Notes under the pieces: model-generated | What the model was told of the DNA's origin: nothing | The model's input: only the letters and a program-made list of their open reading frames with translations | The model's database searches: none | Shown here: positions 16,816 through 57,269 of the stretch, one piece after another | Layout of the letters: every line of letters starts with the position of its first letter | Numbering within the stretch: position 1 is the stretch's first letter | Program-made: the position numbers and the translations under genes | DNA from: Capsulimonadales bacterium | GTDB taxonomy: Bacteria; Armatimonadota; Armatimonadia; Armatimonadales; Armatimonadaceae | Length of the DNA stretch: 64,000 nt | Assembly: GCA_033762295.1 (NCBI GenBank) | Contig: JANRLW010000069.1 | Location: forward strand, 96,001-160,000 | Direction: 5' to 3'

Positions 16816-17910
16816 GAAGGACGGAATGACGACCGGTTCGCCGTCGCGCAGGGCGGATTCGTGGGCGTAGAGGCCGGGCGCGGTCCAGTTCGCGGCGGTG
16901 ACGGCGTCAATGGCCGGAGGACGCGCCTCGATAATGCTGCGGACGAACTCATGGGCGAGATGGGGATGAGAGCCGCCGTGCGCGCCGTCGTGCGCGTATT
17001 CCGTGAACCGACGCAGAGGTTCCGGCAGACGGTCGGCGTAATCCGGGACCTCGATCCGTTCGACCGCGACCGGGCGACCGGCAAACGGAACCGCCGTCTC
17101 CCCGAGCGTGAACAGGCAATGTTTGTCGCCCGATAACTGAGTCCACTCGAAACTTCGTTTGGTGCCGTAGACGCTGAACGCTTCGACGTAGGGACGCGCC
17201 GTTTCAAACCAGGAACGGGTCACCTCCGCGGCGGCATCGGTGTTCTCCAGGCGGAAGAGCGCCGTCTCCAGACGAAACGGGCTGAACTCCGTCGGTTCCA
17301 GACGGGCCGATAGCCGCCCGGAACCGAGACAACTCACCTTCGTCGCGCGGGTATTCGTCAATGCCAGAAGCGGCGCGACGGCATGGGTGGCGTAGTGCAT
17401 CGGCGGGACGGTTTTCCAGTATGCGGGGTAACCCTCCACATCCTGAAAGTAGGTGCCGCGCAGGAACGTCAGCTCGCCCAGTTCACCACGGTCGTACAGG
17501 TCCTTGACGAAGAGAAACTCCCGCGAGTAGACGACCGTTTCCATCATCATGTAGTTCAGACCGGTTCGCCGCCGGGTCTCGACAATCCGGGTGAGTTCGT
17601 CCGGAGTGGAACCCATGCAGACGGCGCTGGCGCAGTGCTTCCCGGCGTTCAGGACACGGATCGCCTGTTCGGCATGGAGGAGAAACGGGGTCAGCAGGTG
17701 GACGGCGTCGATATCCGGTTCCGCAAGAACGTGGTCCAGGCTGTCGAAACGGCGGGCCGCCCCGATCCGCTCGCCCACCTCATGGAGTCGTTGCGGATCG
17801 GTGTCGCAGAGGATGACCTCGCCGACATTCGGGTGCTCCCGGTAGATGGCGGCGAAGGTGGCTCCGAAATGCAGGCCGACGACGGCGATACGGATTTTCG
17901 ATTCCTGCAT
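16810..17910 (-). CDS. Gfo/Idh/MocA family oxidoreductase
   Basis: IRIAVVGL.FG Rossmann start, DIDAVH, HAEQ, AGKH, YMMMET. Confidence 0.88.
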   Translation of the reverse strand: MQESKIRIAVVGLHFGATFAAIYREHPNVGEVILCDTDPQRLHEVGERIGAARRFDSLDHVLAEPDIDAVHLLTPFLLHAEQAIRVLNAGKHCASAVCMGSTPDELTRIVETRRRTGLNYMMMETVVYSREFLFVKDLYDRGELGELTFLRGTYFQDVEGYPAYWKTVPPMHYATHAVAPLLALTNTRATKVSCLGSGRLSARLEPTEFSPFRLETALFRLENTDAAAEVTRSWFETARPYVEAFSVYGTKRSFEWTQLSGDKHCLFTLGETAVPFAGRPVAVERIEVPDYADRLPEPLRRFTEYAHDGAHGGSHPHLAHEFVRSIIEARPPAIDAVTAANWTAPGLYAHESALRDGEPVVIPSFG

Positions 17911-28094: not shown

Positions 28095-30509
28095 TCAGTC
28101 CTTGTACGGGTCGATTTCGTTTTCCCCGGCCATCGCCACGCCGATTGGGGTCAGGGTATGCAACAGGCGGACCGTGCCGGCATGGTGGGCGAGAACCTCC
28201 TCGATCCGCTTATAGCAGTGCGGCGACTCGTCGGTTCCGCCGCCGCGCAGTTCGACCCCCTTATCGCGAACGACCCACGCTTCCATCATCCGGTGCGTGA
28301 CCGCCCCCGGCGCGATGACCTTGCCGCCTTTCATCTTGCCGCGTGCTGCGGTCCGGCTCATCACGCGTCCCGCGCCGTGAACCGTCGAGTAAAGCGACTT
28401 TCGCGCCTCCTCGCTGTCCACCCCCTCCAGGATGACCGAGATATCGCCCATCGACCCGCCGACGAACCCTTTCTGGCCGGGGAACGCGGGAGTCGCCCCC
28501 TTCCGGACCACATACATCTCCTGCCCATGGTGGGTTTCTTTCCAGGCGTAGTTATGGTGGTTGTGAATCTCCTCGACGATCTTCCCGCCCAGAATGCGCG
28601 CTACCTTCCCGCAGACCCAGTCCCGACCGGCGTACGCGTACTTTCCGGCCAGTTCCATACACTGCAGGTACTCGCTGCCGAGGGAGGAGCGCACATCCAG
28701 CACGAGTGGTTCGGCGTCCATTCCCGGTTTCGCCTGTCCCATCTCCAGAAAGTGCGTCGCCGTTTTGTGGCCGAGTCCGCGCGAACCGAAGTGGACACCG
28801 ACCCAGACCCGGTCGGCTTCATCGACGAAGAGGTCGACATAGTGATTCCCCCCGCCGATGGTTCCCAACTGGTTCCGGGCCGTCTGCTTCAGGGTTCGCA
28901 TCGCCGGAAGCTTCCAGGTCTCGTCGTCAAATAGTTCGTGGTCGACCTCCTCGTTGTTGTTCCGGCCCATTCCGAACGAGAGCTTCGAATAGATCTCGTC
29001 CATCAGCTTTTTGATTTTGGTCCGGACCTCGCGTGCCGGAATGTCCAGCCGGACCGCCTTGTTGCCGCAGTTGTGGACGACCACACCGCTGGCGACGAAG
29101 CAATGCGCCGGATCGCCGGTAACGATATCGAACACCCTCGTTTCCCCCTGCTCGGTGATCCGATCGATCGGGCACCAGACGATCTCGCCCGATACGTCCG
29201 GCGTTACGGTTTTTCCAGGCTCACGACGCACGAACACCCGGTCGCCGTCGATCGCAGGGCAGGCAAACCCGCAGGAGACATCCAGCTTGCCGGTGATGTT
29301 CGTCAGGACCTCCCGCCCGGAAGTTCCGACGGACTGCCAGAAAACACTGGCGACCTCCGAGGCCGCAAGGCGTTTCAAGGAGGCATAGCAGAACCCAACC
29401 TCCTCGCAGAGGCGCACCTGCTGCGATACGCCACCGTGCACCTGCAGCAACCAGTCCCGGCGACCCTCACGCTCTCGACCGACCGGAGCAACCGACGCGG
29501 CGTATCCCAGACTCGTCAGCAGTCGAGCGACAAAACGGAGGGTGTCGGGATTCCCACCGGATGGCTTGATCTCCGGATTGGCCTTGCCGATACCGTCGAA
29601 ACGAGGCGTCCGACAGGCCCCGCTGAAAAAACCGGAAAGGAACTGCGCTCGCATCCAGCGCGGTGACCGGAGAAGGTAGGGCATCGGATCGCAGCCCCAC
29701 TCCTTGCGGCCCAACGGTGCGCCCAACTCGGCCAGCAAGCGATGCGGAGCGGTTGCGTTGACATGGACGCGAAGTTCGGTCAGGCGTCCGTCCGGGCCCA
29801 TGCGTCCGACGATACGGGCGCTGTAACCCAATCGGGCGAAATCACGGGAGATCGCTTCGGCGTCCGCCTCCGTCGTAGCGCGGATGCTGATGCGTTTCCC
29901 GTCGCGCGACAGGTGTCCGTCGCCGCAAACGACTCCCAGAAGACGAAGGAGCGGCGCGGCGAACGACGACAGAAGAACCGGCGGCAGATCATGGCTCACG
30001 GGTGCCTCGTACGGTAATCCGAGGAAGGGTAAGCACGCCACTTTATCGCCCGGCTTCAGGTCGGCGGCGGGCTTCCAGCCGTCCGCCGTACGAATCAGAT
30101 GGTCCGGAGTGCAGGTCAATGCGCGCCCATTCGTCAGACGCATCTTCCGTACCGGCTTCACCCCGCGGTCGATCGCCCCGAGGTTCGGCAGAATCCGGCG
30201 GACGGTCTCGCCATCCCAACCGATCACGGCATGATCCGGCAGGACGGATTCGATCGGAAGGTGGAACCCGTCGTCCGTCACTACCGGGGTACCCGAGGCG
30301 ATACAACCGATGTCGTAGCCGACACCGGACGGGCTTACTTTGTCGACATAGGCGACGACCCCGCCGATCGGTACGGCATAGCCCTTGTGGTGGTCGGCCA
30401 TTAACGCGACATCGGCGGCGTCCCGCGCACACGTGACGATCTGACGGAACGCTCCGTCATCGACCGGATCGCCCCAGACCTTGATTCCGTCAATCTCCTG
30501 CATTCCCAT
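28095..30509 (-). CDS. rtcB: RtcB RNA ligase interrupted by an intein
   Basis: MADHHKG..VPIGG, VGYDIG|C, QLGTIGGGNHY, HFGSRG, HHN, RKGATPA, HGAGR, DESP..YK. Confidence 0.95.
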   Translation of the reverse strand: MGMQEIDGIKVWGDPVDDGAFRQIVTCARDAADVALMADHHKGYAVPIGGVVAYVDKVSPSGVGYDIGCIASGTPVVTDDGFHLPIESVLPDHAVIGWDGETVRRILPNLGAIDRGVKPVRKMRLTNGRALTCTPDHLIRTADGWKPAADLKPGDKVACLPFLGLPYEAPVSHDLPPVLLSSFAAPLLRLLGVVCGDGHLSRDGKRISIRATTEADAEAISRDFARLGYSARIVGRMGPDGRLTELRVHVNATAPHRLLAELGAPLGRKEWGCDPMPYLLRSPRWMRAQFLSGFFSGACRTPRFDGIGKANPEIKPSGGNPDTLRFVARLLTSLGYAASVAPVGREREGRRDWLLQVHGGVSQQVRLCEEVGFCYASLKRLAASEVASVFWQSVGTSGREVLTNITGKLDVSCGFACPAIDGDRVFVRREPGKTVTPDVSGEIVWCPIDRITEQGETRVFDIVTGDPAHCFVASGVVVHNCGNKAVRLDIPAREVRTKIKKLMDEIYSKLSFGMGRNNNEEVDHELFDDETWKLPAMRTLKQTARNQLGTIGGGNHYVDLFVDEADRVWVGVHFGSRGLGHKTATHFLEMGQAKPGMDAEPLVLDVRSSLGSEYLQCMELAGKYAYAGRDWVCGKVARILGGKIVEEIHNHHNYAWKETHHGQEMYVVRKGATPAFPGQKGFVGGSMGDISVILEGVDSEEARKSLYSTVHGAGRVMSRTAARGKMKGGKVIAPGAVTHRMMEAWVVRDKGVELRGGGTDESPHCYKRIEEVLAHHAGTVRLLHTLTPIGVAMAGENEIDPYKD
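29070..30305 (-). mobile_element. Intein (412 aa) with LAGLIDADG-type endonuclease region
   Basis: Starts CIASGTPV, block B TPDH, ends VVHN followed by extein Cys; removal restores DIG-CGN; block C LLGVVCGDG. Confidence 0.93.
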
Positions 30510-53605: not shown

Positions 53606-54901
53606 GTGACGGACGAAACGGTATCGGTCGGGCCGACCCGGCGGCAGCAGTGGGCGCTCTCCATCGCCATGTTCCTCATCACCGGCGCGTTCGGTTTCCT
53701 CCAGACGTTTACCTCGCTCTATCTTTCGGCGGCGGGATTGCAACTGAAAGAGATCGGTTTGGTGACCGCGCTGGGAACCGCGGTCGCCATCTTCCTGCAG
53801 CCGGTTCTGGGACGTCTCTCCGACCGCTGGGACACACGCCGTCCGTTCATGGTGCTGGCCGCACTCGGATCGGCCGGCGCGTACCTGCTCTTTCGGAAGG
53901 CGGCGGGTTTCGAGCAGTTCGTTCTTCTGACCGCCCTGGGGGTGAACGGTTCGCAGTATCTCAACACGGTCGGCGGAGTGCTGGTCGGGCGAATGGTGCG
54001 AGCGACCGGGGGAGGAACCGCCTACGTACGGTATCGGCTCTGGGGATCGGTCGGCTACATCGTGGTCGCCCTGACGACCGGCGGTATCGTCAAGGCGTAT
54101 CTGCCGGAGAACGCCACGCTGAATCGGGCGGACCTCGATCCTCTGTTCACCTACGCGCCTCTGCTTTTCCTTGCCATCGCCGTCGCCTCCCTGTTTGTTC
54201 CCGATGTGAAAAACCCGCCGCCGACCGATCGGGATACCGCGCCGGAAGCGATCGAGCCACCGCGAACCCCGCAGGAGCAGGCGAATCTCCGGTGGTTTCT
54301 GACCGCGTTTTTCCTCTATCAGTTCTCGCTCTACGGGGCGTCGGCGTACCTGCCCTTGTTCATGAAGTCCCTCGGCGCGAGTCCGCTGCATATCACGGCG
54401 ATGTACGCGGGCGGCGTCCTCATCGAGGTGGCCGTGATGTCGCAGGTGGGGCGATGGGTGGACACCTACGGGCGCTGGCCGGCGCTGGCCGCTTCGTTCC
54501 TGCTGCTGCCGGTTCGTCTGCTGCTCTATGTCCCGGCGAATTCACCGCTCCACGTCATGGCGGTGCAGACTCTTCACGGTTTCAACTTCGGCATTATCGG
54601 GACGATCGCGATCGTCTTCGTCAACGATCTCGCCCGCAACCATGAGCGGGGAACGATCCAGTCGCGACTGGCCGTGACTCAGGGGATCGGTGTCGCTCTC
54701 GGTCCGGTCGTCTGCGGATTTCTGTCCGATCGCTTCGGCATACCGACCATGTTCGCGGTCATGGCCGGTGGCGCCCTTCTGACCGCCGCCGTTTTTTGGA
54801 CCCGTGTCCGCGAGACCCATCCCTCGCCGAAACCGTTACCGGCCGGATGGCGGTTCCTGCAGGGCGCTCCCATGCGGCCTTCCGGGGACGGCAGCGGCTA
54901 A
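53606..54901 (+). CDS. MFS transporter
   Basis: About 12 TM helices; G.LSDRW..RRP, R.WGS.GY, G.WVD.YGR. Confidence 0.88.
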   Translation: MTDETVSVGPTRRQQWALSIAMFLITGAFGFLQTFTSLYLSAAGLQLKEIGLVTALGTAVAIFLQPVLGRLSDRWDTRRPFMVLAALGSAGAYLLFRKAAGFEQFVLLTALGVNGSQYLNTVGGVLVGRMVRATGGGTAYVRYRLWGSVGYIVVALTTGGIVKAYLPENATLNRADLDPLFTYAPLLFLAIAVASLFVPDVKNPPPTDRDTAPEAIEPPRTPQEQANLRWFLTAFFLYQFSLYGASAYLPLFMKSLGASPLHITAMYAGGVLIEVAVMSQVGRWVDTYGRWPALAASFLLLPVRLLLYVPANSPLHVMAVQTLHGFNFGIIGTIAIVFVNDLARNHERGTIQSRLAVTQGIGVALGPVVCGFLSDRFGIPTMFAVMAGGALLTAAVFWTRVRETHPSPKPLPAGWRFLQGAPMRPSGDGSG

Positions 54902-55968
54902 CGCCGGTAAGCGCGCCGCATCAGCAGACCGATCAGAAGCAGTCCGGCGTTTACCGTAATCAGCAGCGGGAGCCACGTCTGACGGAAAGCATTGGCCGAG
55001 AGAAGCTGTTCGAGCCGCCGGGCGTTGCCTTTATCGCCCAGGGCGGTAAGGTCCGCCGCGAGGAGCTTGATCTGTTGCCGAACCACCTCCCGGCGAACCG
55101 CGTCGTTCCGAACGGTCGGCCAGGTTTCCGCCGCGACCTGTCCCGCCGTCTGCGTCGTCAGCAACGCGCCGTTGGAATCGCCCAGTTTCCCCTGGATCTC
55201 GGCGAGTTCCCGGTAGAGGACGATGTCGCGGGTCGGTTCGAGTGCCCGCATCGCTTCGCCCAGGGTGGCGAACGCCCCCGGAGAATCGACCGGTACGGAC
55301 CGCTCCAGTGGCCGACAGTCCAGTCGCGGCGCGAGCGGCGTTCCCTGAAGCGAGACCACATTCACCGTGGATACCTGGCTTCCCGTCCCTGACCGGGCCG
55401 TCCATTTCTCCGGAGGAGCGTTGACGACGGGCGGAAGTATATACGGAACGGTGAGGTAACGACCGGCCTGCGCCAGGCCGATCAGGCAGAGCGCGTGAAA
55501 CCGGTCCGACGGGTCCGTCAGTCCGTTCGCCTGCGCTCGGGCGTCGTCCGCCGCGCCCAGCCGAACCAGCGCTTCGAAAAGCCAGAAGGGCACTCCCTGC
55601 GCCCTCGCCTCCGATTCGGTCAGCGCGGCGGGAAGGGTCGAACGCGAATCGTCGAAGAGCGTGGGCAGCGCCGGCAGGTCGAAACGTGCCTGTCCCGCCC
55701 GGATGGCCCCGGTGACGGCCACCGCCGCGCCGGCGACATCGCCTCCTTCGGCTTTTCGAACCGCGGCTTCCATCTCCCGGCGGAAGTTGAGGAGTTCGGG
55801 ACGGGTGAGCCTCGGTGCGTCCGCCGTCGTAGGCGGCGTTTGTGCGGCGACACCGGTCGTCAGAAAGAAAAGGGCAAGGGGCAGGACCATGCCGACAACA
55901 CGCCACCGAGCGCCGATGGACCGCCGGAAAAAGGAGAACCGCATAATCTCGTTTGTACCTCGTTTCAT
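54898..55968 (-). CDS. Exported hypothetical protein with C-terminal TM anchor; ATG abuts the IS left end
   Basis: Signal-like N-terminus, C-terminal TM followed by RRAYRR; second in-frame ATG at 55944. Confidence 0.7.
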   Translation of the reverse strand: MKRGTNEIMRFSFFRRSIGARWRVVGMVLPLALFFLTTGVAAQTPPTTADAPRLTRPELLNFRREMEAAVRKAEGGDVAGAAVAVTGAIRAGQARFDLPALPTLFDDSRSTLPAALTESEARAQGVPFWLFEALVRLGAADDARAQANGLTDPSDRFHALCLIGLAQAGRYLTVPYILPPVVNAPPEKWTARSGTGSQVSTVNVVSLQGTPLAPRLDCRPLERSVPVDSPGAFATLGEAMRALEPTRDIVLYRELAEIQGKLGDSNGALLTTQTAGQVAAETWPTVRNDAVRREVVRQQIKLLAADLTALGDKGNARRLEQLLSANAFRQTWLPLLITVNAGLLLIGLLMRRAYRR

Positions 55969-56082
55969 AAAAATAAGGCGTGGAGACCCTCGGCTTTAGC
56001 CGTGGGAGGAAACGCCCGTCTCCTTTCCGAAGGAGACTGAAGGCGCGAAGTGCCGTTCTGTGCCTCCATTCTTGAAGAATTG

Positions 56083-56091
56083 TGGTATAAT
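56083..56091 (+). promoter_or_regulatory. Extended -10 promoter of tnpB (TGgTATAAT), leaderless GTG 6 nt downstream
   Basis: tgtggTATAATtgacttGTG. Confidence 0.7.
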
Positions 56092-56097
56092 TGACTT

Positions 56098-57201
56098 GTG
56101 AAACTGGTTGCACAAGTCAAATTGATGATTACGCCCGAACAGTCGGACGCTCTTCTGCGAACGATGCGGATTGCCAACGCCGCCTGTGACTACATCAGTG
56201 ACCATGCGTGGAAAACAAAAACCTTCCAGCAGTTCTCCCTCCACAAAGCCACCTATCACGCCGTTCGTGAGACATTCCCCCTCACCGCTCAGATGGTCGT
56301 TCGCTGTAATGCCAAAGTTGCCGATGCCTATAAACTCGACAAGACGACGAAGCGGACCTTCAAGCCACTGGGTTCTATTGCCTACGACGACCGCATTCTG
56401 TCGTGGAAGGTCGAGAACTCTACGGTCTCTATCCGGACAGTGGACGGTAGAATCTCTGTCCCGTTTGTCTGTGGCGACTACCAGAAAGAAATGCTTCGTA
56501 CACGGCAAGGAGAAACCGACCTCGCTTACATTGACGGGCAGTTCTACCTGTTGGCGGTCTGTAACGTGGAAGAACCACCGCTCAAAGAAACGAAGGGTTT
56601 TCTCGGCATTGATTTGGGCATCGTTCACATTGCCACTGATAGCGAAGGACGGCAATACAGCGGCGAGGCAATTCGCAACCTGCGTCAGCGTGTCCGAAAG
56701 CATCGCTCCGGACTTCAGCATCAGGCAAAGAAACGTCACTCTAGTTCCGCCTATCGCCGATTGAAAGCGAAGGCTCGGAAGGTCTCTAGGTTCGGCAAGT
56801 GGTTGAACCACAATATCAGTAAGCAGATTGTTCAAAATGCGGTTTCCTCTTTAAAGGCACTTGTTCTGGAAAACCTTTCTGGTATCCCTGAACGAGCAAA
56901 CGGCTTCAACAAAGAGATGAGATGGCAACTTGGCAACTGGTCTTTCTATCAACTGGCTCAAATGGTCGTTTACAAGGCGAAGAAGGCAGGTATTCCTGTT
57001 GTTTTCGTTGACCCGCGCAACACCTCTCGCACTTGTAACCGGTGCGGATACTGCGACAAAGCCAATAGAAAGTCTCAAAGCCAATTTGTTTGCCTCCAAT
57101 GCGGTTGCTGTATGAATGCGGATTTGAATGCCGCCCTAAATATAGCAACACGGGGCAATGTAACTTGCCCTATGGTAGCCACGCCTTACGTAGTCGCGTA
57201 A
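56098..57201 (+). CDS. tnpB: RNA-guided endonuclease TnpB
   Basis: RuvC I GIDLG, RuvC II VLENL, zinc finger CNRC/CLQC, RuvC III NADLNAALNI. Confidence 0.95.
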   Translation: MKLVAQVKLMITPEQSDALLRTMRIANAACDYISDHAWKTKTFQQFSLHKATYHAVRETFPLTAQMVVRCNAKVADAYKLDKTTKRTFKPLGSIAYDDRILSWKVENSTVSIRTVDGRISVPFVCGDYQKEMLRTRQGETDLAYIDGQFYLLAVCNVEEPPLKETKGFLGIDLGIVHIATDSEGRQYSGEAIRNLRQRVRKHRSGLQHQAKKRHSSSAYRRLKAKARKVSRFGKWLNHNISKQIVQNAVSSLKALVLENLSGIPERANGFNKEMRWQLGNWSFYQLAQMVVYKAKKAGIPVVFVDPRNTSRTCNRCGYCDKANRKSQSQFVCLQCGCCMNADLNAALNIATRGNVTCPMVATPYVVA

Positions 57202-57269
57202 GTCAACGTGAGTTATAAAGCCCCCGACTTTAGGCGGGGGAACAGTTACGATACCGCTCCGGAACGGTT
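57050..57269 (+). ncRNA. Predicted omegaRNA/reRNA of TnpB (5' end approximate; guide = flank 57250-57269)
   Basis: Inferred from established TnpB biology: scaffold overlaps the tnpB 3' end and right end, guide is read from the flank. Confidence 0.55.

Follow-up and report, generated by a model that had tools for sequence, protein, structure and literature searches.

Introduction

IS200/IS605 elements are thought to spare genes mainly by landing in intergenic regions or by splicing. IStrons, in which a group I intron is combined with an IS605 or IS607 element, render an IS200/IS605 insertion harmless to the gene. The target of IS608 is TTAC, which does not mirror a start codon, and in the IS608-type pairing scheme guide base 1 is paired with site base 2, base 2 with site base 1 and base 4 with site base 4. 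In the available part of the study of IS608 from Helicobacter pylori, subterminal hairpins are described together with a left linker, about 15-16 nt in length and unprotected by the transpososome, and with a guide of four bases, located 5' of the hairpin, which selects the cleavage site (He et al., 2013; PMC3597680). Equally, the accessible part of the work on ISGst1-5 of Geobacillus stearothermophilus describes non-autonomous TnpB and IscB elements that are served by TnpA in trans and excised without scar, upon which the nuclease cuts the donor joint and recombination reinstalls and thereby retains the element (Meers et al., 10.1101/2023.03.14.532601). The same part gives TTCAT as the TAM of the IscB element ISGst5, and mentions neither TTCAT as mirror of a start codon nor a Shine-Dalgarno (SD) sequence in the left end.

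The window, that is the whole stretch of 64,000 nucleotides analysed here from a Capsulimonadales bacterium, holds a related element in which a TnpB is found beside TTCAT. Like the ISGst elements it is non-autonomous, and like IS608 it carries subterminal hairpins with four-base guides. Unlike in IS608, the linker in the clade of the window element comes to lie on the position of the host SD sequence and spacer and is itself SD-bearing in two subgroups, and unlike IStrons, the window element is without intron and antisense to the host gene. An IStron was rejected on the grounds that only 129 nt separate junction and tnpB and that no Rfam match was found at E up to 1. Docking of IS200/IS605 elements on start codons was found in no paper of the literature searched, with subscription papers and bioRxiv supplements largely outside it, and the available parts of PMC3119797, PMC11448079 and 10.64898/2026.09.24.754181 hold nothing relevant to it.

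The element and its ends

The element extends over 1,281 bp of the plus strand (55969-57249), encodes tnpB only and occurs once in the assembly; its GC content is 50.8% versus 62.3% for the genome. Directly upstream lies the target and TAM TTCAT (core TCAT; 55964-55968, +), and the host ORF 54898-55968 indeed, as originally predicted, opens with its reverse complement. The left end begins with a 14-nt linker (55969-55982, +), which occupies on the host strand the position of the former SD sequence and spacer, and continues with the guide GAGA (55983-55986) and the subterminal hairpin (together 55983-56016, +) and with a second hairpin (56018-56037, +), similar to those in related left ends of the source genome. 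The right end (57217-57249, +) comprises the guide AAAG (57217-57220), a hairpin (57221-57240) and the cleavage site TTAC (57246-57249) and is predicted to form the 3' part of the omegaRNA scaffold, for which an Rfam match was not obtained and the fold z-score is -0.94. By the mechanism described in the available part of 10.1101/2023.03.14.532601, the predicted omegaRNA guide would correspond to 57250-57265 (+), the former leader of the host gene in antisense.

The extent of the element follows from both guides predicting sites that are found at the expected positions, as GAGA predicts TCAT, present 14 nt upstream, and AAAG predicts TTAC, present 5 nt past the hairpin. The pairing scheme known from IS608 is borne out by covariation in the relatives, where left guides and targets change together (GGGA-CCAT, GAGG/GAAG-TCAC, GGGG-CCAC), as do right guides and ends (CAAG-TGAC, GAAG-TCAC), with four types of left guide and three of right guide represented and with fixed spacings of guide and site of 12-18 or 27-30 nt. 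This covariation fixes the boundaries without need of the SD argument that had been advanced for them; the GGAG at 7 nt on which that argument was built is present and lends modest support of about ninefold. The target consists of the four bases TCAT, the mirror of ATGA, with T at position -5 in 44/67 junctions and no apparent extended preference beyond positions -5/-6. The proposal that the TAM is aimed at Met-Lys and Met-Asn starts thus holds for these starts, but is too narrow, since the four-base TCAT equally takes Met-Ser, Met-Thr, Met-Ile and Met-Met.

At the window element, terminal inverted repeats were not seen by eye and a target duplication was not found, as linker and right flank do not share their first base. 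A general target duplication was rejected, as linker and right flank begin with more than two shared bases in only 1/57 two-ended elements.

TnpB (367 aa; 56098-57201, +) matches PF01385, PF07282 and NF040570 above cut-off and, with the RuvC motifs D172, E258 and D342 and both CxxCG motifs present, looks intact. A TATAAT (56086-56091, +) 6 nt before its GTG is likely a promoter for leaderless transcription of tnpB. In many relatives, too, tnpB starts 6-7 nt past a -10-like hexamer, a spacing that points to leaderless transcripts. No tnpA lies within the element, which by its sequence is a non-autonomous, IS1341-like member of IS200/IS605. Two intact tnpA genes with related ends, encoding HVH and a catalytic-type Tyr, are found elsewhere in the source genome (contigs C130 and C103), and the right hairpin at C103 equals that of the window element over 24 nt. 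Related element ends are also seen at assembly breaks of this genome (G000; starts of contigs C14 and C15, ends of C80 and C36), a right-end remnant lies on C34 at ~17330-17380 and the right flank on C80 carries GAGG at SD distance.

The host gene

The host ORF (54898-55968, -) encodes an orphan protein of 356 aa and starts at the element junction. The protein is probably exported, judged from a signal-peptide-like N-terminus read by eye, and ends, equally by eye, in a hydrophobic segment followed by basic residues. There is no co-oriented gene downstream; divergent from the host gene lies a gene for a secreted-looking protein with a Vps62 match (PF06101; 57449-58555, +).

The likely native SD of ATG 55968, a GGAG (57257-57260, -), lies beyond the right junction at a distance of 7 nt, and the U-rich linker without SD, as in most ends U-rich in its first bases on the host strand, now precedes the ATG, in agreement with the original view that the element had parted the SD from its start codon. 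In the joined allele, GGAG stands 7 nt before the ATG and an in-frame stop lies 26 codons upstream without an alternative start in between. As GGAG is found at 5-9 nt in 20.6% of called ATGA starts versus 2.3% of other ATGA sites, support for the native SD is real but modest, about ninefold. Neither a terminator on the host strand, by scan, nor an outward -10 box was found in the window element.

No homologue of the host protein was found by protein search in 40 relatives and in metagenome contigs or in the protein database, where the only match is the window's own record, so that its start cannot be fixed by conservation. TPR-like look-alikes in the Atlas, at 0.80 or less, serve as a lead only.

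Junctions across the clade

Left ends were gathered by searching 61 and 401 genomes for TnpB and 71 genomes of the order with a target-free hairpin pattern, of whose matches only those with complementary-looking stems were taken, and 109 junctions were scored. Dropped were duplicates (L005, L031, L036, L084), ends without flank (L044), at a contig edge (L048) or with altered target (L054), eight entries without recognised left end (L028, L032, L035, L038, L039, L045-L047) and pattern matches without predicted target. Among the latter, five are clearly real ends with a guide that predicts TCAT, which follow TTAT (L092, L101, L140, L141) or TCAC (L133) in an apparent wobble of the target. At L028 (G031:C16), one of the eight, the left end of a TCAC-type element is apparently broken up by other sequence. 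A junction was counted as start if its ORF had 75 codons or more, or ran off the contig edge, and showed either a signal-like N-terminus or a homologue in the source genome aligned within ≤10 residues of the start, and the same rule was run on all ATG/GTG sites in the same flanks as controls. The genomes in the set are related; each junction represents a different site.

By this rule, 33/67 TCAT junctions are starts, 12 are clearly not and 22 are unclassified, compared with 36/721 ATGA control sites; the figure for the TCAT guide becomes 33/71 when the four TTAT ends, which cannot be starts, are added. At CCAT junctions there are seven starts among 31 (10 not, 14 unclassified; controls 19/951) and at GTG-type junctions (TCAC/CCAC) two among 11 (controls 33/2279). 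The true share is probably higher than counted, because in some unclassified ORFs, L008 and L041, a Pfam model starts no more than ten residues from the ATG. Furthermore, SD-like 4-mers are present in 18/47 right flanks of ATG-type junctions, one of which (L007) is a mis-called right end, compared with ~10% at non-start sites and 52.5% at starts, which points to a start share of roughly two thirds. Altogether, about half or more of the insertions of the clade sit on start codons. In the source genome, four of the five left ends pass the start test, that of the window and those at genes for an alcohol dehydrogenase, a short-chain dehydrogenase and a secreted protein; at the fifth, the ORF is doubtful, but AGGAG stands 4 nt from the junction. 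The expectation that other copies would abut starts is therewith borne out within the genome and clade-wide.

In the source genome, with 4,205 genes and 86% coding sequence according to our own gene caller, ATGA sites are starts in 4.6%, intergenic in 13.8% and within genes in 81.6% of cases, and starts make up 25% of the ATGA sites outside genes (33% for ATGAA). Measured against these non-genic rates, which rest on one gene caller and one genome, the starts at TCAT junctions are in excess (binomial p 1.6e-5 for 25% and 0.0045 for 33%); the CCAT starts are not significantly above their non-genic rate of 15.5% (p 0.19). By a crude test, a coding run reaches up to the junction in only three of 47 non-start or doubtful junctions.

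A multi-copy CCAT family of ~14 loci in genome G016 (L065, L102, L104-L106, L108-L111, L113-L116) shows fewer start insertions and some intragenic ones, as expected if selection had less time. Many PATE-like derivatives of 370-560 bp in the order, which retain both ends without a full tnpB (among them L065, L083, L095, L096, L099 and L100), also dock on starts.

Empty alleles

At three insertions of the clade, the joined flanks agree at the junction with the element-free sequence of sister genomes, at pth (L024; two of five are close, three more distant), at cmk (L018; 2/2) and at a gene of the LeuA/CimA family (L095; best in L162). At these loci the ATG of the junction is consequently the native start and the insertion is scarless, as the reconstruction by joining of flanks had presumed for the window. 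At L024 (G043:C486), the element sits on the ATG of the only pth above the family cut-off in the assembly and brings GGAGGT along, and at L018 (G001:C123), it sits on the ATG of the only cmk above the family cut-off and brings no SD; the two assemblies are incomplete (97% with 8% contamination and 92%, respectively). The native leaders of pth and cmk have no SD, and their -10-like hexamer is separated from the gene by the insertion. The empty allele of the window locus itself was not found in 40 relatives by protein or DNA, with only chance-level matches of 25-65 nt, nor in metagenome contigs by protein or exact 24-mer.

The left-end linker

Two subgroups carry an SD in the linker. In genus g7, all 20 SD-bearing left ends keep GGAGG or AGAGG 5-7 nt from the junction, yet their first 8 nt fall into 19 different sequences; conservation of the SD could also stem from its partial overlap with the outer stem of the left end. 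In the second type, the linker is about 13 nt longer and the SD usually AAGGT. The types of left end are scattered over several branches of a tree of 41 TnpB proteins. As SD-less left ends are found at starts about as often (17/37) as SD-bearing ones (16/30), a replacement SD is not what keeps most elements there. Equally, an outward -10 box is not enriched across the set (25/89 versus 31.7 expected from shuffles).

Two footprints suggest that the linker may have been swapped with host leader sequence. At L034, the left linker begins with 9 nt that repeat right-flank sequence, and the native SD-ATG spacer is thus kept before the ATG. At L165 (G016:C16, ~29360-29375), the element-free leader of a LeuA/CimA-family gene ends like the reversed linker of the element at L107 in the same genome, with a 16-letter pattern found at only these two places in G016, and the orthologue in G020 has an element at the same ATG; the L165 leader may accordingly be either a scar or the sequence from which the linker was taken. 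TnpB cuts within the leader that matches its guide, and repair via SD microhomology could therefore yield both footprints, as far as can be judged from two cases. In an extended and rather doubtful model, start codons would be the niche of the clade and the linker an exchangeable ribosome-binding cassette, with the cut of the empty joint and repair by SD microhomology swapping linker and host spacer.

Probable persistence at start codons and its alternatives

We favour as probable that this TnpB-only element, inserted after a TCAT that mirrors the likely first codon, belongs to a clade that persists at starts because the coding sequence stays whole. The ends, the match of guide and target, the enrichment at starts and the scarless junctions at three other loci are directly shown. 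From what is known of the family, TnpA supplied in trans would have carried out the insertion and could also remove the element. The empty joint would be cleaved by TnpB with its guide from the right flank, and the element would be regained through repair on the sister chromosome, which would make the filled state the stable one. Intragenic insertions would be purged and insertions at the ATG tolerated, from which it would follow that the downstream gene is usually still expressed to some degree. As the window element carries no SD, it is probable either that expression of the host gene, from the U-rich linker or ATG 55944, has changed and likely fallen, or that the gene is dispensable and now quiet. 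What counts against persistence through tolerance is that CCAT junctions show no significant excess and that an outward promoter is not enriched.

Both observations on the TCAT junctions, the excess over the non-genic rate, which retention leaves unexplained, and the equal frequency of SD-less and SD-bearing elements at starts, would be accommodated if TnpA itself preferred start regions, drawn by unstructured single-stranded DNA, open leaderless promoters or extra target contacts, and the genes were simply knocked down. The probability of an unpaired TCAT is indeed 0.72 at starts versus 0.68 in intergenic regions and 0.66 in genes, and a -10 box lies 5-7 nt before the ATG in 4/47 native leaders. 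This gap in accessibility is, however, much too narrow to explain why insertions within genes are almost absent, an extended sequence preference past -5/-6 is not apparent and silencing of a single-copy pth is expected to be harmful, which makes such targeting with knock-down unlikely. At the window locus, an alternative start at 55944 (or 55891) would place the element in the 5' leader and leave the translation signals intact. ATG 55944 is in frame and preceded at 12 nt by a possible SD, GAGGT (55957-55961, -), which pairs as well as the lost GGAG with the anti-SD (duplex energies of -7.3 and -6.4 kcal/mol), of usual type in the 16S tail of the order (3/3 loci read); it was chosen by our own gene caller and in two public records, all on the filled allele, and the signal-peptide-like segment is complete from there. 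The SD spacing of 12 nt is, on the other hand, long, GGAG stands at typical spacing for 55968, with a chance rate of 2.3% at non-start sites, and the clade-wide prior of about half or more favours a start at the junction. An origin of translation at 55944 is hence improbable, and the true start is with high confidence 55968.

The original prediction went further and saw in the locus a potential reversible switch, in which the gene would be turned on once excision has brought SD and ATG back together; in the reading weighed here, the host makes use of it. Surface-exposed proteins are often phase-variable, and the host protein looks surface-exposed. The two intact tnpA genes with related ends could supply the excision, and its scarless nature agrees with the junctions of the empty alleles and with the available part of 10.1101/2023.03.14.532601. 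TnpB looks intact, however, and the cut of the restored allele, which the prediction had itself foreseen, is the retention mechanism published there, by which TnpB reinstalls the element; since it works against a lasting ON state, the argument for a switch is weakened by it. The empty allele, sought in the relatives and metagenome contigs, did not turn up, re-insertion among the ~27,000 TCAT sites of the source genome would not be site-specific without a sister copy and a fallback start exists at 55944. Moreover, dozens of genes without relation to each other share this arrangement, among them housekeeping genes such as the single-copy pth and cmk, so that no locus-specific purpose is needed. 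Use as a switch by the host is thus highly improbable.

Implications

The window locus is an ordinary example of its kind, and the value of the analysis lies in the clade-wide counts, the checks against empty alleles and the two linker footprints. For annotation, it carries the warning that starts beside such elements get mis-called. If elements of this clade do persist at starts because coding sequences stay whole, a target that mirrors ATG would be a third route to harmless insertion, in which a gene, even pth or cmk, has its leader taken over by the element and, with some subgroups, receives a ribosome-binding site from it. The elements would then be a source of change in gene expression, and the recurrence of TCAT and CCAT TAMs would have a reason. 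Should the tentative exchange of linkers and leaders also hold, elements would gather host spacers, as the 19 different 8-mers in 20 near-identical ends may reflect, lost elements could leave their own SD on a host gene and the activity of TnpB would rewrite the translation signals of its host.
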